From contig CAVSNY010000007.1 in NCBI GenBank assembly GCA_963729605.1, positions 768,001-832,000 on the forward strand: a stretch of DNA of 64,000 nt. Reading direction: 5' to 3'. Shown piece by piece: positions 1,843 to 16,868 of this stretch. This stretch comes from an uncultured Gammaproteobacteria bacterium (GTDB lineage Bacteria; Pseudomonadota; Gammaproteobacteria; DRLM01). Under the pieces are notes generated by a model that saw only the letters and a list, made by a program, of their open reading frames with translations, searched no databases and was not told the origin of the DNA. Both the position numbers and the translations under genes were made by a program. Position 1 is the first letter of the stretch. Every line of letters starts with the position of its first letter.

Positions 1843-3902
1843 TGGTGCCGGAGATTGGACATTTCGCGCTGATTATCGCTTTATGCATGGCCTTGGTGCA
1901 GGGCAGTTTGCCGATCATCGGCGCCGCGCGCGGAATACCGCGCTGGATGGCCTTGGCCCGGCCGTTGGCGCAAGGCATGTTCGTCTTTGTCGCCGTCGCC
2001 TTCGCCTGTCTCACCTATTCGTTTATTCAAAATGATTTCTCCGTGCTCTATGTGGCGTCGCACTCTAATTCGGCTCTGCCGCTGCAATACCGTATCGCCG
2101 GCGTATGGGGCGGTCATGAAGGTTCCCTGTTGCTGTGGATTTTGATGCTGACCGGCTGGATGCTGGCGGTCAGTATGTTCAGCCGTCATTTGCCCGATGA
2201 AATGGCGGCCCGGGTATTGGGCGTAATGGGCCTGGTGACGGTCGGTTTCCTGGCCTTTACGCTGTTCACCTCCAATCCCTTCGCCCGTTTGTTGCCCGCC
2301 GCGCTCGACGGCCGGGATTTGAATCCGCTGCTGCAAGACTTCGGTTTGATCATCCATCCGCCGATGTTGTACATGGGTTATGTCGGTTTCTCGGTGGCCT
2401 TCGCCTTCGCCATCGCCGCGTTGCTGGGCGGCAGGCTCGACGCCACCTGGGCGCGCTGGTCGCGCCCGTGGACCACGGTGGCCTGGATGTTCCTCACCAT
2501 CGGTATCGCGCTCGGCAGCTGGTGGGCCTATTACGAATTGGGCTGGGGCGGCTGGTGGTTCTGGGACCCGGTCGAGAACGCCTCGTTCATGCCTTGGTTG
2601 GTCGGCACGGCGCTGATCCATTCGCTCGCCGTCACCGAAAAACGCGGCAGCTTCAAGAGCTGGACCGTGCTGCTGGCGATCACGGCGTTTTCGCTGAGCC
2701 TGCTCGGCACCTTCCTCGTCCGATCGGGTGTGTTGACCTCGGTGCATTCCTTCGCCAACGACCCCGAGCGCGGCATGTTCATCCTGATTTTCCTGGTGAT
2801 CGTAGTCGGCGGTTCCCTGGCGCTGTTCGCATGGCGCGCGCCCAAGGTCGGTTTGGGCGGGCGTTTCGAGATGTTGTCGCGCGAGACCATGCTGCTCGCC
2901 AATAACGTGCTGTTCGTGGTCGCCGCCGGCACGGTGTTGATCGGCACCTTGGCGCCGCTGGTGGTGGACGCCATGGCCTCGCTCGGCGTCATCGCGCCGA
3001 CCAATAAGATCTCGGTGGGGGCGCCGTATTTCGACGCGGTATTTATTCCCATCATGGCCGCCGTGGTGTTTTTCATGGGGGTGGGGCCGGTCGCCAAATG
3101 GAAACAAACCACCGTGCCCGAGCTGGGACGGCGGATACGCTGGGCCGCGGCGGTCGCGATCGTCATGGCGATCATTACGCCTTTCGTGATGGGGCACTGG
3201 TCGTGGCTGGTCAGCCTGGGCGCGTTGATGGCCTTCTGGATCGTCGCCACCGTGCTGCTGAGTCTGCGCGACCGCTTGAGCCGGACCCCCGGCGACAAGC
3301 CGTGGCCGGTGCGCCTGGTGAATCTGCCCACCAGTTACCTCGGCATGCAGCTCGCGCATTTCGGGGTGGCGGTGTTCATCCTCGGTGTGATGGGGGTGAG
3401 CGGTTACGAGGAAGGCAAAGACGTGCGCATGGAGATCGGCGATACGGTCGAAGTGTCGGGCTATACCTTCCGTTTCGACGGCGTGATCAATGCCAAAGGC
3501 GCGAACTACGAGGCGCAACGCGGTCTGATCACGGTATTCAAGGGTGAGAAGCCGCTGATGCAGCTCCATCCCGAGAAGCGGGTCTATCGCGTGCAAAAAG
3601 ATGTCATGACCGAAGCGGCTATCGACAGCGGCTTTTTCCGCCACTTGTTCGTGGCGCTGGGTGAGCCGGTGGGCAACGGCGCCTGGAGCGTCCGGGTTTA
3701 TTACAAACCCTTGATCAACTGGATCTGGGGCGGCTGCGGCTTGATGGCCTTGGGCGGCTTGCTCGCGATCAGCGACCGCCGCTACCGCGCCTTGGCGCGC
3801 AAGCAGCGTCAGATGGCCGAGGCGGGCGAAGGGGAAGGCGACGCCTCCGATGCACCGGCCCCGGCCGGCGGTTTCTTGCGCGGTTCGGAGGTGAAGTCCT
3901 GA
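1842..3902 (+). CDS. ccmF: Cytochrome c synthetase CcmF
   Basis: WGGHEGS, HPPMLYMGY, WGGWWFWDPVENAS, SVHSFA. Confidence 0.98.
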   Translation: MVPEIGHFALIIALCMALVQGSLPIIGAARGIPRWMALARPLAQGMFVFVAVAFACLTYSFIQNDFSVLYVASHSNSALPLQYRIAGVWGGHEGSLLLWILMLTGWMLAVSMFSRHLPDEMAARVLGVMGLVTVGFLAFTLFTSNPFARLLPAALDGRDLNPLLQDFGLIIHPPMLYMGYVGFSVAFAFAIAALLGGRLDATWARWSRPWTTVAWMFLTIGIALGSWWAYYELGWGGWWFWDPVENASFMPWLVGTALIHSLAVTEKRGSFKSWTVLLAITAFSLSLLGTFLVRSGVLTSVHSFANDPERGMFILIFLVIVVGGSLALFAWRAPKVGLGGRFEMLSRETMLLANNVLFVVAAGTVLIGTLAPLVVDAMASLGVIAPTNKISVGAPYFDAVFIPIMAAVVFFMGVGPVAKWKQTTVPELGRRIRWAAAVAIVMAIITPFVMGHWSWLVSLGALMAFWIVATVLLSLRDRLSRTPGDKPWPVRLVNLPTSYLGMQLAHFGVAVFILGVMGVSGYEEGKDVRMEIGDTVEVSGYTFRFDGVINAKGANYEAQRGLITVFKGEKPLMQLHPEKRVYRVQKDVMTEAAIDSGFFRHLFVALGEPVGNGAWSVRVYYKPLINWIWGGCGLMALGGLLAISDRRYRALARKQRQMAEAGEGEGDASDAPAPAGGFLRGSEVKS

Positions 3903-4426
3903 TGGGTCGGTTTCTAATCCCCCTCGGGGTGTTCGGTTTGTTGGCGGTGTTCCTATTTATCGGGCTCAGTCTCAAGCCCAGTGAGATCCCTTCGCCCTTG
4001 CTCGATAAAGCGGCGCCGGCGTTCGCGTTGCCGCAATTGCATGAACCGGACGAAAACTTCACGCCCGCCGATCTGCGCGGCCAGGTCTGGCTGTTCAACG
4101 TGTGGGCTTCTTGGTGTGTGTCCTGCCGCGACGAGCACCCGTTGTTGTTGGATCTCGCGCGTACGGGCGAGGTGCCGATCTACGGCCTCAATTACAAGGA
4201 TCAACGCCAGGACGCCGTGCGCTGGCTGCAACAGCTCGGCAATCCCTATATCGCGAGCGCCTACGACCTCGAGGGCCAAGTGGGGATCGATTACGGGGTC
4301 TATGGCGTGCCGGAAACCTACGTGATCGATCGCGAAGGGGTGATCCGCCACAAACACATCGGTCCCATTACGCTGAAAGTTTTGACCGATGAAATTCTCC
4401 CCATCGTAAGGAAGCTCAAAGGATGA
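3902..4426 (+). CDS. ccmG: Thiol:disulfide interchange protein CcmG/DsbE
   Basis: WASWCVSC thioredoxin motif, GVYGVPET; position in operon. Confidence 0.95.
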   Translation: MGRFLIPLGVFGLLAVFLFIGLSLKPSEIPSPLLDKAAPAFALPQLHEPDENFTPADLRGQVWLFNVWASWCVSCRDEHPLLLDLARTGEVPIYGLNYKDQRQDAVRWLQQLGNPYIASAYDLEGQVGIDYGVYGVPETYVIDREGVIRHKHIGPITLKVLTDEILPIVRKLKG

Positions 4427-9964: not shown

Positions 9965-12436
9965 ATGAGGAGTCTCGGTACCCGCTTGGCCCTGGTGATC
10001 TCGGCGGTGTTGTCGCTGCTGGTCTTGTTCGCCGGCATGTGGCTGGAGCGGCAAGTCACCGAGACCATGCGCGCCGAAGAGGTGCGCCAGGCCAAATTGC
10101 ACGCCGGTACCTTGCTGGGCAGTTTGCAGACCTTGATGCTGAACGGCCAGGGCACGCTGGCCCGTTCCTGGCTGGACCGCATGCACGGTGAAGCCGGCAT
10201 CGTAGATATCGAGGTGCTGCGCCGGGACGGCGTGGAGGCCTTCACCGATTTGTCCACGGTGAAGGCCGTGAATGAGTATCTGGGCTACCCGCGTTTTCAG
10301 CGGGAACCTTCACTATCCCGCCATGGCCCTGACGTCAACAAGCCCGCCTTCAAACAGGCCTTGCAGGGCGAGTTGTCGGTGGATTGGGCCACGCCCGGCC
10401 AGATGTCTTTATACATGCCCATCGAGAGGCGCGGGGAATGTATCGCCTGTCATGGTTATGAAGATGATCCCATGCGCGGCGTCTTGAAGCTGGCCTTGTC
10501 CACCGTGGCGGCGGAAAACCGCATCGACGCCATGCGTCATCGGGTGTGGGTGATGTCCGCCGGCCTGGTGTTGCTGCTGGGCGTGGCGATGTGGGTGGCC
10601 TTGCGGGTCAGCGTGCTGGGGCCGATCGCCCATTTGCGCGATGCGATCAAACGGGTGGGCGAAGGCGACCGCGACGCCAAGCTGCCGGTCGGACGCCGCG
10701 ATGAGGTAGGCGAGGTGTCCGAGGTCTTCAACCGCATGCAGGACCAGTTGGTGGCAAGCGAGGTGCGGATCCGCGCCGTCATGGACAACGTGCTGGACGC
10801 CATCATCACCTTCGATGGAAAAGGTACGATCGAGTCGGCCAATCAGGCGGTGCGCAATGTGTTCGCATGCAGTCCCGAGGAACTGCTCGGCCAGAATCTC
10901 AAGATGTTGATGCCGGAACCTTACCGCGGCGAATACGAGCGCTTTCTGGCCCATTACATCGAAAGCGGCGAGCCGCGCATCCTCGGCGTGGGCCGCGAGG
11001 TGATGGGCCAGCGCAAGGGCGGCGGCATCTTCCCCATGGATTTGGCGGTGAGCGAGATGTGGGTGCACGGCCGGCGTTATTTCATCGGCATCATCCGCGA
11101 CATCACCGAACGCAAAGAGCAGATGGCGGCCATCGAATATCAGGCACTGCACGACGCCTTGACCGATTTGCCCAATCGCTCCCTGCTCTCCGATCGCCTG
11201 CACCAGGCGATCCTCAACGCGATCCGCGACAAGACGCCCCTGGCCTTGATCATCATGGATCTCGACCACTTCAAAGAGATCAACGATACCCTCGGCCATC
11301 ACAACGGCGACTTGATTTTGAAACAGGTGGCGACCCGGGTGCGCGGCGTGTTGCGTGAATCGGACACCGTGGCCCGCCTCGGCGGCGACGAGTTCGCGGT
11401 GCTGTTGCCCACCGCGGATTTGATCGACGCCACCCGCATCGCCAAGAAAATTCTGAGCGCCCTCGACCAGCCCTTCGATCTGGAAGGACAGTCCTTCCAC
11501 GTCGGCGGCAGCCTGGGCATCGCGCTGCTGCCCGAACACGGCCGCGACGGCACGGCGCTGATGAAGCGCGCCGACGTCGCGATGTACGAGGCCAAGCGCG
11601 GCAAGACCGGTTTCGCTTTATACGATCCTTCCAAGGATCAACACAGCCTGCGCAATCTGTCCTTGATGGGCGATTTGCGCTCCGCCATCGAACAAAACCA
11701 GTTGGTGCTTTACTATCAACCCAAGGTCAATATGCAGACCGGGCGGGTCAGCGGCGTGGAGGCCCTGGTACGCTGGCAACACCCGCAACATGGCTTGATG
11801 TATCCCGACGACTTCATCCCGCTCGCCGAGCAGGCGGGTTTGATCCGCCAGGTGACCTTGTGGGTGTTGGAAAAGGCCCTGGCCCAACACACCGATTGGT
11901 TGCAGATGGGTATCGACTTGAGCATGGCGGTGAACCTGTCGGCGCGTAACCTGCAGGACAATGTCTTCCCCGACGAGGTGGGCGCCCTGCTGCGCGGTTA
12001 TCACCATACGCAATTGTCGCGACTGCGTTTCGAGATCACCGAAACCGCGATGATGGCCGACCCCGGCCGCGCGGCGGAGATACTCAACGCCCTCGGCGCC
12101 ATGGGTATCCGGTTGTCGATCGACGATTTCGGCACCGGCTATTCCTCCTTGGCGTACCTCAAGCAATTGCCGGTGGCGGAATTGAAGATCGACAAGTCCT
12201 TCGTGCTGGGCATGAGCACCGACGACAACGACGCGGTGATCGTGCGTTCCACCATCGACCTCGCCCATAACATCGGCATGCGGGTGGTGGCGGAAGGTGT
12301 CGAGGATAAAAAGACCTACGACATGTTGGCCACGCTGGGTTGCGACGTGGTGCAGGGTTATTTCATCAGCCGGCCGGTGACGCCCGAGGAATTATTGCGC
12401 TGGTTGCAGAATCCGCCCTGGGGCCTGCAGGTATAA
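9965..12436 (+). CDS. Membrane c-di-GMP enzyme: periplasmic CxxCH sensor-HAMP-PAS-GGDEF-EAL
   Basis: Two TMs flanking a region with CIACH; HAMP (RRDEVGEV); PAS; RESD I-site plus GGDEF; EAL plus DDFGTGYSSL. Confidence 0.93.
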   Translation: MRSLGTRLALVISAVLSLLVLFAGMWLERQVTETMRAEEVRQAKLHAGTLLGSLQTLMLNGQGTLARSWLDRMHGEAGIVDIEVLRRDGVEAFTDLSTVKAVNEYLGYPRFQREPSLSRHGPDVNKPAFKQALQGELSVDWATPGQMSLYMPIERRGECIACHGYEDDPMRGVLKLALSTVAAENRIDAMRHRVWVMSAGLVLLLGVAMWVALRVSVLGPIAHLRDAIKRVGEGDRDAKLPVGRRDEVGEVSEVFNRMQDQLVASEVRIRAVMDNVLDAIITFDGKGTIESANQAVRNVFACSPEELLGQNLKMLMPEPYRGEYERFLAHYIESGEPRILGVGREVMGQRKGGGIFPMDLAVSEMWVHGRRYFIGIIRDITERKEQMAAIEYQALHDALTDLPNRSLLSDRLHQAILNAIRDKTPLALIIMDLDHFKEINDTLGHHNGDLILKQVATRVRGVLRESDTVARLGGDEFAVLLPTADLIDATRIAKKILSALDQPFDLEGQSFHVGGSLGIALLPEHGRDGTALMKRADVAMYEAKRGKTGFALYDPSKDQHSLRNLSLMGDLRSAIEQNQLVLYYQPKVNMQTGRVSGVEALVRWQHPQHGLMYPDDFIPLAEQAGLIRQVTLWVLEKALAQHTDWLQMGIDLSMAVNLSARNLQDNVFPDEVGALLRGYHHTQLSRLRFEITETAMMADPGRAAEILNALGAMGIRLSIDDFGTGYSSLAYLKQLPVAELKIDKSFVLGMSTDDNDAVIVRSTIDLAHNIGMRVVAEGVEDKKTYDMLATLGCDVVQGYFISRPVTPEELLRWLQNPPWGLQV

Positions 12437-12673
12437 TCCCGGCGGGCGCCATTCCCGCTGCTCGCGGCGTAGAGATACAACAAGGGTTAACGAAGATTGC
12501 GCTATACGAGGCGATACCTCGTAGCGTGCGCCGCACGGAAAGGCGGCTTACGCGCGCACGGCGCACATTGTGGCTGGCGCCATTACTATAATCTCCCACC
12601 CGTGTGATTCTCCCTTTGATCTGGCGCGGGGAGAACGCAGCGAGGGTAGCTTCCCGTGCGCAGTCAGGCCCCT

Positions 12674-13816
12674 TTAACGCGCCGGCGCGGTCGGCGCCGT
12701 GGTTGCCCAATCGTCGGGCGCGCGGCGCACCGGCCGGAAGATATCGATCTTGCGAAAATATTGATCGGCTATATATACCCGCCCCGTTTCGTCCACCGCC
12801 ACCCCGGCTGGCAAATAAAATTTGCCCGGCTTGCTGCTCTCGTCCCGATTGCCGATGTGCATCAGGATCTGGCCTTGCGGGTTGAAGAGCTGGACATTGC
12901 CGAAGGCGGCGTCGGCCACGTAAATGGTACCTTCGGCGTCGGTGGCGATGCCTTTGGGTCGGGCGAATTGGCCGGGGAAACGCCCCACTTCGCCGAAGGC
13001 GAGGCGAAAACTCCCGTCGGCCGCGAAGCCCTGCACCCGGAAATTGCCGCCGTCCACCACGTACACGCTGCCGTCCGCGGCGGTGGCGGCCTGCAACGGC
13101 AGATTGAATTGGCCGTTGCCGGTGCCGCGGGTGCCGATGGTTTGCAGCAAGGCACCGCTGCGCGGATCGAGCACATGGACGTGATGCTGCTCGCTGTCCA
13201 CCCCGCCCACATCCACCACGTAAAGCCGCTGGCCGTCCGGGCTGAGGGCGACCCCCGAGGGCCGGCGCAGCTCGGCGTCGCTGCCGAGGACGCGGAGGTG
13301 CTTGCCGCCGGCGTCGTAGACCTGCACCCGCCGCGCGCTGACGTCGGCGACGTAGATTTCGTTATCGGGCGACAAGGTGATGCCGATGGGTTTTTGCAGC
13401 CGGCCCGGCTCGCTTTGGCCGAACTGGAGGAAGCGCTTGCCGGCGATGTCGAACAACAACACCGCGCTTTGCGCGGTGTCGGTGACGTAGACCCGCCCGC
13501 CGCGGGCGGCGACGCCGTAGGGTTTCACCAGGCCTTTGACTTCCTCGCCGCGGCCGGTGGCGAGTTCGCGCCAGCGGGCGAAGCCGCTCAACTGCTCGAC
13601 GTCTTCGTTGATGCGCAGGGTGCGTTCGTAGATGAAACGCGCCTCGTCGGGCGGCGGCGGATAGACGGGCGGTTCAAGCCGCGGGGCGGGCGGGGCGCTG
13701 GCGCAGCCGGTCAACAGGCCCAGCACGCATAACGCGACCAGACCCGGCTTTAGGGCGCCTCTAAAAACCCGCTGAAACCGCGATGGCGGTGTTGGAAACG
13801 TGCTCAAAATACTCAT
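12674..13816 (-). CDS. NHL-repeat six-bladed beta-propeller lipoprotein
   Basis: Lipobox LLTGC; repeats F..P.G(I/V)A.D..G.(I/V)YVAD; VYPPPPDEARF N-terminal motif; start uncertain because it lies inside a MITE. Confidence 0.85.
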   Translation of the reverse strand: MSILSTFPTPPSRFQRVFRGALKPGLVALCVLGLLTGCASAPPAPRLEPPVYPPPPDEARFIYERTLRINEDVEQLSGFARWRELATGRGEEVKGLVKPYGVAARGGRVYVTDTAQSAVLLFDIAGKRFLQFGQSEPGRLQKPIGITLSPDNEIYVADVSARRVQVYDAGGKHLRVLGSDAELRRPSGVALSPDGQRLYVVDVGGVDSEQHHVHVLDPRSGALLQTIGTRGTGNGQFNLPLQAATAADGSVYVVDGGNFRVQGFAADGSFRLAFGEVGRFPGQFARPKGIATDAEGTIYVADAAFGNVQLFNPQGQILMHIGNRDESSKPGKFYLPAGVAVDETGRVYIADQYFRKIDIFRPVRRAPDDWATTAPTAPAR

Positions 13817-13891
13817 GACTCCGTGTGCAGCGCGCTTTTTCGCCCATTTCCGCCTTGCCTTCGCGCCTTGATCGAATTTTTAGAGGCGCCC
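13753..13891. mobile_element. 139-bp MITE-like element
   Basis: Perfect 15-bp terminal inverted repeats GGGCGCCTCTAAAAA / TTTTTAGAGGCGCCC; TTTA direct repeat on both sides (13749-13752, 13892-13895). Confidence 0.75.
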
Positions 13892-13892
13892 T

Positions 13893-14690
13893 TTATTTGA
13901 TATGGCATGTTTCACACAGGCGATCGGCGCGGGTGCGCAGCAGGAGCGTCACGTCGGGATCGTGGACGTTGTGGCAGGTGGCGCACTCGACTTTGCCGTC
14001 ATAAAGTTTGATGCCGTTGTCGAAACCGTAGGGGCTGTCGGGCGTGCGAAAATCCTGGTCGTTGTTGTTGAGGCCGGCATAGGTCATCGAGATGGCGTGG
14101 TCGTTGGTGAGATCGGTGCCGATGTGTTTGATGGCGATGCTGTGCGCCACCCGGCCGTCATGGCATTTGCCGCAGCTCATTAAATCGTTGCCGCCGTTGA
14201 GGCGCAAATGCAGCGCCGCGTCCTCGCTGCTCTGCCAGCCGTCGGGTTTGAACACCGTCATGTCCACGCCCATGGTGCCGTCGTGGCAGGACAGGCACAG
14301 CAGGCTGATCGGGCTGGGCGTGCGCACCTTGTTGTCGAGGGTGCGGGTATCGTAGATGTCATAGGCGCCGGTGGCGGGGACGAAACGATTCCAGCCCGGA
14401 ATGCCGCCTTGTCCGGCGCTGTCCTGCTCGGGCCGTTCGGGGGGCAGATGGCAATAGACGCAGGAGTTGCCGTAATCGGAGAAGGCCACTCCGGGCATGG
14501 CCACCACGCCGGCGCGCTGGTTGAGTCCGGTGAAGTCGTGTTTGGTGCCGAGCAGGGTGCCGGCCAGGGCATTCGCGCCGAGCAGCAGCGCGGCGATGAT
14601 GGCCGCGGCGCCGGCGATACGGGTGGCTGACGAGGCGCGCTCATGCGAACGCATCGGTGCGGGTGCGCTGTGCTGTGCTGGGCGTGTCAC
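13893..14690 (-). CDS. Pentaheme cytochrome c
   Basis: Five CxxCH motifs (CVYCH, CLSCH, CGKCH, CATCH, CETCH); signal peptide ending ALA; alternative ATG start at 14654. Confidence 0.88.
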   Translation of the reverse strand: MTRPAQHSAPAPMRSHERASSATRIAGAAAIIAALLLGANALAGTLLGTKHDFTGLNQRAGVVAMPGVAFSDYGNSCVYCHLPPERPEQDSAGQGGIPGWNRFVPATGAYDIYDTRTLDNKVRTPSPISLLCLSCHDGTMGVDMTVFKPDGWQSSEDAALHLRLNGGNDLMSCGKCHDGRVAHSIAIKHIGTDLTNDHAISMTYAGLNNNDQDFRTPDSPYGFDNGIKLYDGKVECATCHNVHDPDVTLLLRTRADRLCETCHIK

Positions 14691-14877: not shown

Positions 14878-15924
14878 ATGACTATGCGCGCCGCGGCCTT
14901 CGCCGCCCTTACAGTCTTGACCGTGCTGATCGCCACCCCGGCCTCCGCCGCGGTGGACGGCGCGGCGGTGTACGTCGAGCATTGCCAGGTCTGCCACGGC
15001 GACAAAGGCGACGGCAATACCCGCGTGCGGCGGGGTTTGACGCCGCCGCCGCGCGACTTCACCAGCGCGCGGGCGCGCCAGGAGTTGAGCCGCGAGCGCA
15101 TGATCAATTCGATTGCCCACGGCCGGCCCGGCACCGCCATGGTGGGATTCGGTCAGCGCCTGTCGGAAGAGGAGATCGCCGCGGTGGCCGATCACATCCG
15201 CGCCAGTTTCATGACCGCCCGTGACGGCAAGGCCGAGCCCCGTCCTGCCAAACTGGTGTTGGGCGAACAATTGTACGTGCGCAATTGCGCCGTGTGTCAC
15301 GGCGACAAGGGCAGTGGCGCGATGTGGACCCAGTCGAGCCTCAACCCGGCGCCGCGGGACTTCACCTCGCCGGCGACCCGCGAGGAATTGAGCCGCGAGC
15401 GGATGATCAACTCGGTGACCTTCGGCCGGCCCGGTACGGCGATGATGTCCTTCAGCAAACGGCTTTCTCCCGCCGAGATCGAGACGGTGGTCGACTATGT
15501 GCGCGCCACCTTCTTTTTGAAGGAGCCCGCCCTGCCGCCCGAGCACGCGCAGCGGGTCCAGGCCGACATGGCGCAGCCCTTTCCCAACGGTTTGCGCGGC
15601 GACGCCGCTTGGGGACGGGAGTTTTACGAACACAATTGTTTCACCTGCCACGGCAAGGAAGGCGACGGCAAAGGGCCGCGCTCGAAATTCATCAATCCCA
15701 AGCCGCGTAATTTCCTCGAAACCGATTCACGCGCGCGGTTGAACCGGCCCGCCCTGTTCGACGCGGTGCGCGACGGGCTGCGCGGCACGGTGATGCCGGC
15801 CTGGGGCAAGGTGCTCAGCGAACAGGAGATCGCCAACGTGGCGGAATATGTGTTCACCGCCTTCGTCCATCCGGCCGCCGCCTCCGCCCCCCCGGCGGAT
15901 AAAAAAAAACTGAACGCCCCGTAG
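14878..15924 (+). CDS. Triheme cytochrome c of three tandem class I domains; N-terminal part of a frameshifted gene
   Basis: Signal peptide; CQVCH, CAVCH, CFTCH, each followed by PxPR(D/N)F and G..GT.M. Confidence 0.9.
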   Translation: MTMRAAAFAALTVLTVLIATPASAAVDGAAVYVEHCQVCHGDKGDGNTRVRRGLTPPPRDFTSARARQELSRERMINSIAHGRPGTAMVGFGQRLSEEEIAAVADHIRASFMTARDGKAEPRPAKLVLGEQLYVRNCAVCHGDKGSGAMWTQSSLNPAPRDFTSPATREELSRERMINSVTFGRPGTAMMSFSKRLSPAEIETVVDYVRATFFLKEPALPPEHAQRVQADMAQPFPNGLRGDAAWGREFYEHNCFTCHGKEGDGKGPRSKFINPKPRNFLETDSRARLNRPALFDAVRDGLRGTVMPAWGKVLSEQEIANVAEYVFTAFVHPAAASAPPADKKKLNAP

Positions 15925-16868
15925 CCGCCAGCGCCGCGCAAATCGCCCGCGGCAAGCAGGTCTATAACGAACGCTGTTATTTCTGTCACGGCTACAACGG
16001 CGACGCCAAGACCTTGGCCGCCAGCTATCTGTCACCTCCGCCGCGGGATTTCACCAAGAGCGATCCCGCCAGGCTGAGCCGGGAAAAAATGATCGCCGCC
16101 GTACGCGACGGCCGGCCCGGCACGGCCATGAAAAGTTTCTCGACGCTGTTGAACGAGCAGGATATCGCCGCCGTGGTGGACTTCGTCCGTGCCACCTTCA
16201 TCGACCAGCGCGGTATCAACACTTATTACCATACCGTTGAAAACGGCTGGCCCGATCATCAACGCTACGCGGCGGCCTTTCCGTTCGCCTTGGGCGAGAT
16301 CGCGCTGGACACGCCGTGGGAGGAATTGACCCCGGCCCAGCAGGCGGGCAAACGTTTGTTCATGTCGAGTTGCATCAGTTGCCACGACCGGGCGCGGGTC
16401 AACGACGAAGGCGTGGTGTGGGACCCGCGCTCGGTGTCGTTTCCGCGCGGGGGCTACCGGCATGATGTCGAGCAGGATAAAAAAGTGGACGCGGTGAGCG
16501 GGGCGACACCCTACGCCAAACACGATAAGCCGCCCAAGCTGGAAAAGGCCACGGCGCAGGAGCGGCGCGGCGAACAGTTGTTTCAGGCCAATTGCGCGTT
16601 CTGTCACGCCGCGGACGGCACGGCGCGCAATTGGATCGGACGGTTTCTCGAGCCCCATCCCCGCGACCTCACCGACGCCGCGGCCATGAAGGGGATGGGG
16701 CGGGCGGAAATCAAAGAGGCGATCCGCGAGGGTGTGCCGGGCACGCCGATGTCGGCGTGGAAGCATGTGCTGCCGGATCAGGACATCGACGCCATCGTCG
16801 CCTATATCGTTCGGGTCTTTCATCCGCTGCCGGCGGTTCCCGATCGGCCTCCCGCCCCCCGGCCTTGA
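15903..16868 (+). CDS. Cytochrome c continuation in the -1 frame with three more hemes and no own start or signal peptide
   Basis: Frame is open from 15903 and reads KKTERPVAASAAQIARGKQVYNERCYFCHG. CYFCH lies upstream of the first start codon (TTG 16014). Further CISCH and CAFCH follow. Confidence 0.85.
   Translation, partial: KKTERPVAASAAQIARGKQVYNERCYFCHGYNGDAKTLAASYLSPPPRDFTKSDPARLSREKMIAAVRDGRPGTAMKSFSTLLNEQDIAAVVDFVRATFIDQRGINTYYHTVENGWPDHQRYAAAFPFALGEIALDTPWEELTPAQQAGKRLFMSSCISCHDRARVNDEGVVWDPRSVSFPRGGYRHDVEQDKKVDAVSGATPYAKHDKPPKLEKATAQERRGEQLFQANCAFCHAADGTARNWIGRFLEPHPRDLTDAAAMKGMGRAEIKEAIREGVPGTPMSAWKHVLPDQDIDAIVAYIVRVFHPLPAVPDRPPAPRP

Follow-up and report, generated by a model that had tools for sequence, protein, structure and literature searches.

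A conserved run of nine A's at the frame junction of a split gene, a candidate site for producing three-heme and six-heme forms of a periplasmic cytochrome c

Organization of the split cytochrome gene

We analyzed a stretch of 64,000 nucleotides (nt) from an uncultured gammaproteobacterium (GenBank assembly GCA_963729605.1, contig CAVSNY010000007.1, positions 768,001 to 832,000 of the forward strand), called the window below, in which a multiheme cytochrome c gene on the + strand is split over two open reading frames (ORFs) that meet at a run of nine A's. ORF1 (14878..15924) encodes the product of standard decoding, a precursor of 348 amino acids (aa) with an N-terminal signal peptide (MTMRAAAFAALTVLTVLIATPASAA, read by eye from the sequence, without a predictor) and three class-I cytochrome c domains. 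Its heme motifs, all of the CxxCH type, are CQVCH (14983-14997), CAVCH (15286-15300), and CFTCH (15637-15651). The C terminus of ORF1 reads ...ADKKKLNAP*, from the codons GAT AAA AAA AAA CTG AAC GCC CCG TAG. The A9 run (15901..15909), which is the proposed site of slippage or shift, is thus read AAA AAA AAA (KKK) in the 0 frame. The 0-frame TAG (15922..15924), located 12 nt past the run, sets the C terminus of the short isoform.

ORF2 (15903..16868) lies in the -1 frame on the same strand. It consists of 321 codons and a stop and encodes a linker followed by three further heme sites, CYFCH (15975-15989), CISCH (16371-16385), and CAFCH (16593-16607). The -1 frame is closed by a TAA directly 5' of the run (15900..15902), so a frame change is needed at or after position 15903. 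The T-AAAAAAAAA arrangement at this TAA is common to all 10 split loci of the family. In the third frame, a TGA (15911..15913) is found 1 nt past the run, and A8 or A11 transcripts would terminate there at once. ORF2 has no signal peptide, and the first ATG, GTG, or TTG in its frame is the TTG at 16014, downstream of heme 4.

This organization agrees with a preliminary description of the locus, made from the sequence alone, which had placed the run at 15901-15909 and the TAA at 15900-15902, reported a -1 frame open for 321 codons with a fourth cytochrome domain homologous to domains 1 to 3, and pointed out that CYFCH precedes any start codon and that a signal peptide is lacking. Residues 8 to 103 of the -1 product match the three ORF1 domains with expect values (E) of 6e-22, 1.8e-19, and 1.4e-16. 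The Pfam families Cytochrome_CBB3 and Cytochrom_C were detected in both halves, PF13442 at an E of 1.6e-42 in ORF1 (three stretches) and 9.6e-32 in ORF2. As in class-I c-type cytochromes, the CxxCH motifs, six in all, lie in PF13442/PF00034 domains, with an export signal on ORF1 only. The length of the fused product follows by arithmetic: 344 aa through KKK and 319 aa from the T onward add up to 663 aa with six hemes, as had been proposed. No NCBIfam model scored above its cutoff. A sequence search of the PDB pointed to no specific relative, the matches (best E, 1.7e-07) being generic ones to domains of CcoP and cytochrome c552. An AlphaFold2 model of ORF2, built from a 10-row alignment (A1), was of low quality, with a mean predicted local distance difference test score of 59.1 and a predicted template modeling score of 0.39.

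Authenticity of the A9 run

The A9 run is not an assembly slip. Public sequencing runs of the locus numbered 24, all in the form of Logan contigs, of which X1, X13, X18, and X19 were examined, and the run is crossed without gaps by contigs of two of them that stem from different studies, X1 (record 6, spanning 15301-16765) and X13 (record 9, spanning 14878-16240). X13 carries an RNA-Seq label but may be DNA. Both contigs read A9, and the A10 that would have spoken for an in-frame gene was found in neither.

The genome (3.48 Mb, with a GC content of 0.61) contains three A/T runs of nine and none longer, with 2.3 expected from base composition. Because the count is close to this expectation, our argument rests on the conservation of the run and not on its rarity. 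The other two runs of this length, at C6:118045 and C7:67513 of the same genome, seem to be located close to gene starts or away from long open frames, and no frame split was obvious at either.

Conservation of the run, the frame relation, and the stops

The order to which the window belongs is represented by 12 species-level genomes, 11 of which have the gene. In 10 of those 11, it is split in the same manner, with a codon ending in T, then A9, then C (A8-C in L011). The -1 frame opens at a TAA formed with the run, and the 0-frame stop comes 4 to 15 nt past the run. Within the order, the identity of ORF2 to that of the window drops to 58%. In the eleventh genome, the locus L010 (G009:C30:62230-66015) has a deletion at about 1495-1850 by which domains 3 and 4 are joined out of frame and the run and heme 4 are lost; it represents either a pseudogene or an assembly in which the repeated domains were collapsed. 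The twelfth genome, G002, belongs to the genus of the window and is rated 99% complete, and it yielded no orthologue at an E of 1e-30 or better.

In the wider set, one genome per species was scanned, and the best 80 of 447 relatives were kept. The loci examined numbered 91 (L001 to L011 and L021 to L100), from which we excluded seven same-genome duplicates as well as L010, L080, and L094, in which the heme-4 or signature motif is missing, leaving 81 unique loci. In L080, a Candidatus Methylophosphatis record, the ORF2 frame (3282-4268) has the downstream signature and no CxxCH at the heme-4 position.

A run of at least eight A's is present at the junction in 56 of the 81 loci (52 A9, 3 A10, and 1 A8). 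These run-bearing loci have GC contents from 0.42 to 0.74, and all 45 of the 56 that have a taxonomic label are labelled Gammaproteobacteria. ORF1 is visible in 55 of them, on which the counts of frame, phase, and stops are based. ORF2 lies at -1 in 54 of the 55, and at +1 in L036 alone, which has A10; the run is read AAA AAA AAA in the 0 frame in 52. The 0-frame stop is found at a median distance of 9 nt past the run and within 12 nt in 46 of the 55 loci, compared with a fraction of about 0.16 for off-frame stops inside ORF2. Early termination in the 0 frame looks selected. A third-frame stop within 30 nt past the run was found in 33 of the 55, against about 0.31 to 0.35 for the null, which is a weak hint. 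The linker from the run to heme 4 varies between 16 and 63 residues, and the bases flanking the run are low in information, with at most 0.67 bits upstream, in an alignment anchored on the run and in which the run itself is therefore uninformative.

ORF1 had a pairwise ratio of nonsynonymous to synonymous substitution rates (dN/dS) of 0.175 and ORF2 one of 0.20, at a median dS of about 1.3, and no stops were found in any ORF2 frame. Since dN/dS is low while silent sites are saturated, both halves are maintained as proteins. Lys codons elsewhere than in the run are AAA in 51% of cases. As in known slippage genes, the A9 is located exactly at the frame junction, the run is conserved among orthologues more strongly than synonymous drift would allow, and both ORFs are under purifying selection. 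The preliminary description had proposed programmed recoding, by transcriptional slippage or -1 frameshifting, with phase variation or sequencing error as alternatives, and had suggested looking for recurrent split genes with an A run in the same frame relation. Such genes proved to be numerous among the homologues, and the recurrence of the run, of the -1 relation, and of a nearby 0-frame stop, together with purifying selection on ORF2, supports the proposal.

Dependence of ORF2 on ORF1 and alternative architectures

Among the 56 run-bearing loci, we looked for signals that could allow ORF2 to be made and exported on its own. In 38 of them, the stretch from the run to heme 4 contains neither ATG, GTG, nor TTG. 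The region from the run to heme 4 has a hydrophobicity maximum, measured as the maximum 11-residue Kyte-Doolittle mean, of no more than 1.88 in all 56, i.e., it contains no hydrophobic stretch. Cytochrome c maturation attaches heme to c-type cytochromes only after their export. As ORF2 has no export signal of its own and heme attachment requires export, the ORF2 of run-bearing genes can only be functional and exported as a fusion to ORF1.

The 25 run-less loci among the 81, all of the two-gene type, provide a different picture. ORF2 has its own start codon and signal peptide in 23 of them, as one would expect if the run-bearing lineages relied on recoding instead, and the remaining 2 are cut by a contig end. 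The signal peptides of these two-gene ORF2s have hydrophobicities of 2.05 to 3.37, frequently with a lipobox, and across loci L035 to L100 they usually end in a lipobox-like L-A-(A/G)-C. The separate second module would thus probably be a lipoprotein, whereas the fused form carries the ordinary signal peptide of ORF1. In the 21 two-gene loci with ORF1 visible, ORF2 starts from -4 to +40 nt relative to the ORF1 stop. By label, the run-less loci belong to Betaproteobacteria (19), Hydrogenophilia (1), and Gammaproteobacteria (1), with 4 unlabelled.

In-frame fusions also exist. We searched for longer proteins and for near-length homologues, scoring in both cases the 8000 candidates that share most words. 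The former search gave 17 matches, 14 of which are six-heme-type fusions of 567 to 785 aa, as against 2874 near-length homologues at an E of 1e-60 or better. Several in-frame fusions have KKK or KK at the junction, and one of them, P0009, reads ...DLKKTES..., as expected from a two-A deletion of a site of the window type. In the one lineage for which DNA was recovered, the locus L101 has an in-frame AAT AAA AAA AAA GGA (run at 2584-2592) within a single six-heme open frame of 698 codons, whereas in L102, a metagenome contig related to L101, the run is A11 (2563-2573) and the gene is split, with ORF2 at -1. The persistence of the run across these frame states fits a site that serves to generate length heterogeneity. 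L101 has a second A9 at 2906, inside ORF2, and its sequence is of lower GC content.

In an unrooted FastTree phylogeny, the run-bearing state is scattered; eight changes are needed to explain it, three of which are forced by well-supported branches. Among the two-gene rows, 23 of 25 fall in one group.

Public gene calls of run-type ORF2s begin at an internal GTG, TTG, or ATG and thereby yield leaderless cytochromes. For instance, P0020 (284 aa) is without heme 4, and P0026, P0063, and P0105 begin inside the linker. ORF2 is likely to be mis-annotated systematically across many metagenome proteins, and our reading would correct this annotation, in that the leaderless cytochromes of public protein sets could not mature.

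Transcriptional slippage as the favored mechanism

It is very likely that some form of programmed recoding at the run yields the six-heme fusion. We propose that its main mechanism is slippage by RNA polymerase, to which we give a probability of roughly 0.6 on the available sequence evidence. According to this model, a modular class-I cytochrome c of the periplasm would be encoded by a single gene that is decoded in two ways at the A9 run, in a linker between domains. Standard decoding would produce the 348-aa three-heme precursor, with the stop four codons past the run. In part of the transcripts, RNA polymerase would slip on the nine A:T pairs, the length of which matches that of the RNA:DNA hybrid, and would add one A or remove two, such that the -1 frame would be read on. 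The resulting 663-aa protein with six hemes would be exported and have its hemes attached by virtue of the ORF1 signal peptide, and the frequency of slippage would set the ratio of a free three-heme carrier to a six-heme carrier. We infer that the shift takes place in the RNA rather than during translation; how often it occurs and what purpose the ratio serves in the cell are likewise parts of the model.

The main competitor is programmed -1 ribosomal frameshifting on A_AAA_AAA, in which the mRNA would be a faithful A9 copy and two Lys tRNAs would slip back by one base, giving the same fusion with the predicted junction peptide DKKKTERPVAASAAQIAR. In E. coli dnaX-type cassettes, such a heptamer is combined with a Shine-Dalgarno-like element before it and a stem-loop after it. 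We looked for stimulatory elements of this sort. No conserved RNA structure was found downstream of the run (median z-score of -0.35; 7 of 56 loci and 0 of 56 control windows below -2). A Shine-Dalgarno-like 4-mer is present upstream in only 6 of the 56 loci, with no conserved element. A nascent-RNA hairpin upstream of the run is not conserved either (median z-score of -0.10; 3 of 55 loci below -2).

The preliminary description had noted a GCCGCG...CGCGGC inverted repeat at 15933..15953 on the + strand. The repeat is present, but it is not a credible stimulator: it begins 23 nt past the run, and the 55 nt past the run have a z-score of 0.02 relative to shuffled sequence. At the level of the family, the 6-base-pair stem, which also begins 23 nt past the run, was rejected as a stimulator with a covariation term of -0.06. 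The repeat is probably incidental, because it overlaps conserved Ala/Arg-Gly codons. A search of Rfam gave no known frameshift element or other family, the sole match being a chance microRNA at an E of 0.95. Scans of the region showed no promoter-like site, and on the + strand no site resembling a terminator lies between the run and ORF2.

Ribosomal frameshifting would account for the slippery heptamer, which is available in every locus and phase, for the -1 relation in 54 of 55 loci, and for the AAA AAA AAA phase in 52 of 55; A-rich heptamers are known shift sites (PMC3711429, PMC4066793). We nevertheless favor slippage, since neither a conserved downstream structure nor a Shine-Dalgarno-like motif accompanies the run, the only hairpin of the family being 23 nt away and without real covariation. 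Slippage is also favored because nine A's are kept where seven suffice for the heptamer, because of the third-frame stops, which would matter only with transcripts of several lengths and are a weak hint, because of L036, and because of the slippage precedents discussed below. L036 (run at 3317-3326) combines A10 and a +1 position of ORF2 with a TAA in the -1 frame; it is the sole run-bearing locus in which one A would have to be lost or two gained; a -1 ribosomal shift cannot reach this frame. L101, which retains an A9 in frame, also argues against ribosomal frameshifting, and we consider it distinctly the less probable of the two mechanisms, though one to be taken seriously.

The other explanations do without recoding of the message. 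DNA-level phase variation would make the gene a contingency locus, in which replication slippage toggles between A9 (short form) and A10 (long form). Homopolymers are indeed mutable, related lineages do vary (in-frame A9 in L101, A11 at -1 in L102, and A10 at +1 in L036), and in-frame fusions with KKK at the junction occur. However, the run has the same length in 52 of the 56 species-level genomes and the same out-of-frame state in 54 of 55, the close strains represented by X1 and X13 also have A9, and length differs only between more distant lineages. Longer proteins are also few (17 compared with 2874 near-length homologues, in searches that each scored 8000 candidates), and the product is a periplasmic redox carrier and no surface antigen, all of which makes phase variation improbable. 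A sequencing or assembly error, with a true gene in frame at A10, or else a decaying pseudogene, could be suspected, as homopolymers are error prone on some platforms and the genome of the window, in seven contigs, may be a long-read assembly. Against this, the identical state is found in dozens of independent assemblies, many of them with contig names of short-read assemblers, ORF2 has a dN/dS of 0.20 and no stops, and the 0-frame stop right past the run is far more frequent than by chance, so that error or decay is very improbable. Finally, ORF2 might be translated alone by re-initiation past the ORF1 stop, which is exactly what the two-gene relatives do, their stop and start codons overlapping. 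The ORF2 of the window has its first start codon, TTG 16014, past heme 4, and the stretch upstream of this codon shows conservation at the protein level; moreover, 38 of the 56 loci lack any start codon in the linker, and a product without signal peptide would not have heme attached in the periplasm. We consider re-initiation the least probable explanation, with hardly any chance of being correct.

Some observations weigh against the slippage model or limit its support. Related genomes are not independent, and common descent, rather than selection, could partly explain why phase and run length are kept; the enrichment in third-frame stops is modest and was judged against coding sequence rather than linkers. 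The contigs of the RNA libraries, X18 (15473-15702/15750-15783) and X19 (14997-15268), stop short of the run. The heptamer A_AAA_AAA is contained in an A9 of any phase, the phase is the same in 52 of 55 loci, and a -1 ribosomal shift would give the identical DKKKT junction. L036 is a single locus, whose A10 could be an assembly error. Lastly, the length of the run changes over evolution (in-frame A9, A10, and A11), and there might be a contribution at the DNA level.

A broader and more speculative version of the slippage model would see the A9 as an old tunable junction, somewhat like alternative splicing, with slippage setting the stoichiometry between a three-heme shuttle and a tethered six-heme wire and the run itself, more than any particular frame relation, being the selected element. 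The frequency of slippage would then possibly depend on how fast cells grow, on nucleotide pools, or on transcription factors. Over evolution, the module would have moved among two-gene, recoded-fusion, and run-keeping in-frame-fusion architectures. Taken as a whole, this version is doubtful.

Genomic neighborhood and possible role

The split gene is part of a conserved redox neighborhood, which in the window spans 9965-14690 upstream of ORF1. Divergent from the split gene is a gene for a five-heme cytochrome of 265 aa with five CxxCH motifs (13893..14690, - strand). Of the 81 loci, 58 have a homologue, which is downstream in 1 of them and upstream on the opposite strand in the other 57. It is adjoined by a gene for an NHL-repeat beta-propeller protein (12674..13816, - strand; PF01436, E of 1.3e-30), a homologue of which is present in 54 of the 81 loci. 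Farther away, the + strand (9965..12436) encodes a HAMP-PAS-GGDEF-EAL protein whose N-terminal sensor part contains the motif CIACH. Downstream of the split gene lies a gene of the semialdehyde dehydrogenase family, and a homologue follows ORF2 in 40 run-bearing loci. The split gene is likely to function in periplasmic electron transfer.

The composition of the neighborhood resembles that of Candidatus Tenderia electrophaga's secondary c-type cytochrome cluster, described in a preprint as comprising a cyclic di-GMP phosphodiesterase that contains heme, an NHL protein, a pentaheme cytochrome, and "two tri-heme cytochromes" (bioRxiv 10.1101/2022.05.06.490989); the resemblance is by description only. 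Unlike in our reading of the window, the Tenderiales preprint treats the latter as two separate proteins, and the word frameshift is absent from it (bioRxiv 10.1101/2022.05.06.490989). Models of periplasmic electron transfer in lithotrophs and electrode oxidizers that include two tri-heme cytochromes may really concern one three-heme and one six-heme carrier.

Comparison with known recoded genes

The cytochrome site is apparently unreported, although it is of a known kind, i.e., slippage or frameshifting that makes two isoforms. The literature on slippage or frameshifting together with c-type or multiheme cytochromes gave no report of it, within a coverage that did not extend to the supplementary lists of GeneTack or to Sharma et al. 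2011. In the parts of the 2016 recoding review by Atkins that were available, cytochromes are mentioned only as mitochondrial ones, and PMC5371394 has nothing on the gene pair.

Counterselection of A/T runs in coding regions becomes apparent at a length of nine in a large share of the bacterial genomes analyzed (PMC1088944), and the dnaX gene of Thermus thermophilus uses an A9 (PMC1088944). The cytochrome gene resembles it in having a sense-strand A9 in a cellular gene, stops of the alternative frames nearby, and isoforms that differ by C-terminal domains (PMC1088944, PMC5009743). The mRNAs of dnaX vary in run length (PMC1088944, PMC5009743), whereas for the split cytochrome we infer slippage itself. 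The two genes, whose protein families are unrelated, also differ in their default. In dnaX, slippage is required for the short form, the long one being read in frame (tau/gamma), whereas for the cytochrome the short form is standard and the long one needs a shift in 54 of 55 loci. L101 alone has a dnaX-like in-frame arrangement.

In mxiE and spa13 of Shigella flexneri, a homopolymer likewise joins two out-of-frame ORFs, and the longer fusion is the recoded product (PMC1088944, PMC5009743). Those genes belong to plasmid-borne type III secretion in one genus, unlike the chromosomal, respiratory-type cytochrome gene present across many gammaproteobacterial lineages. The poly-A clusters of GeneTack, e.g., that of Mg-chelatase, are similar in involving a chromosomal, non-mobile gene with an A run at a -1 junction, and efficiency grows with run length (PMC3711429); in reporters, frameshifting amounted to 63% with a poly-A cassette of 11 A's, 40% with one of 9, and 10% with one of 7 (PMC3711429). 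They concern other proteins, and the word cytochrome is absent from the main text (PMC3711429), to which, without the supplementary cluster lists, the comparison applies. Like the -1 cassettes of the E. coli dnaX type, the cytochrome gene would produce two isoforms at an A-rich slippery site, but unlike in those cassettes neither a Shine-Dalgarno-like element nor a stem-loop is conserved at the run.

Confirmed cases of slippage or frameshifting for two isoforms in cellular, non-mobile, and non-viral bacterial genes are few. The candidate described here is kept in at least 56 species-level genomes with GC contents of 0.42 to 0.74, a breadth of conservation that is unusual among recoded two-isoform genes, and its two-gene and in-frame relatives could be used as natural controls. 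The system is thus well suited to asking why recoding has been chosen over ordinary gene arrangements.

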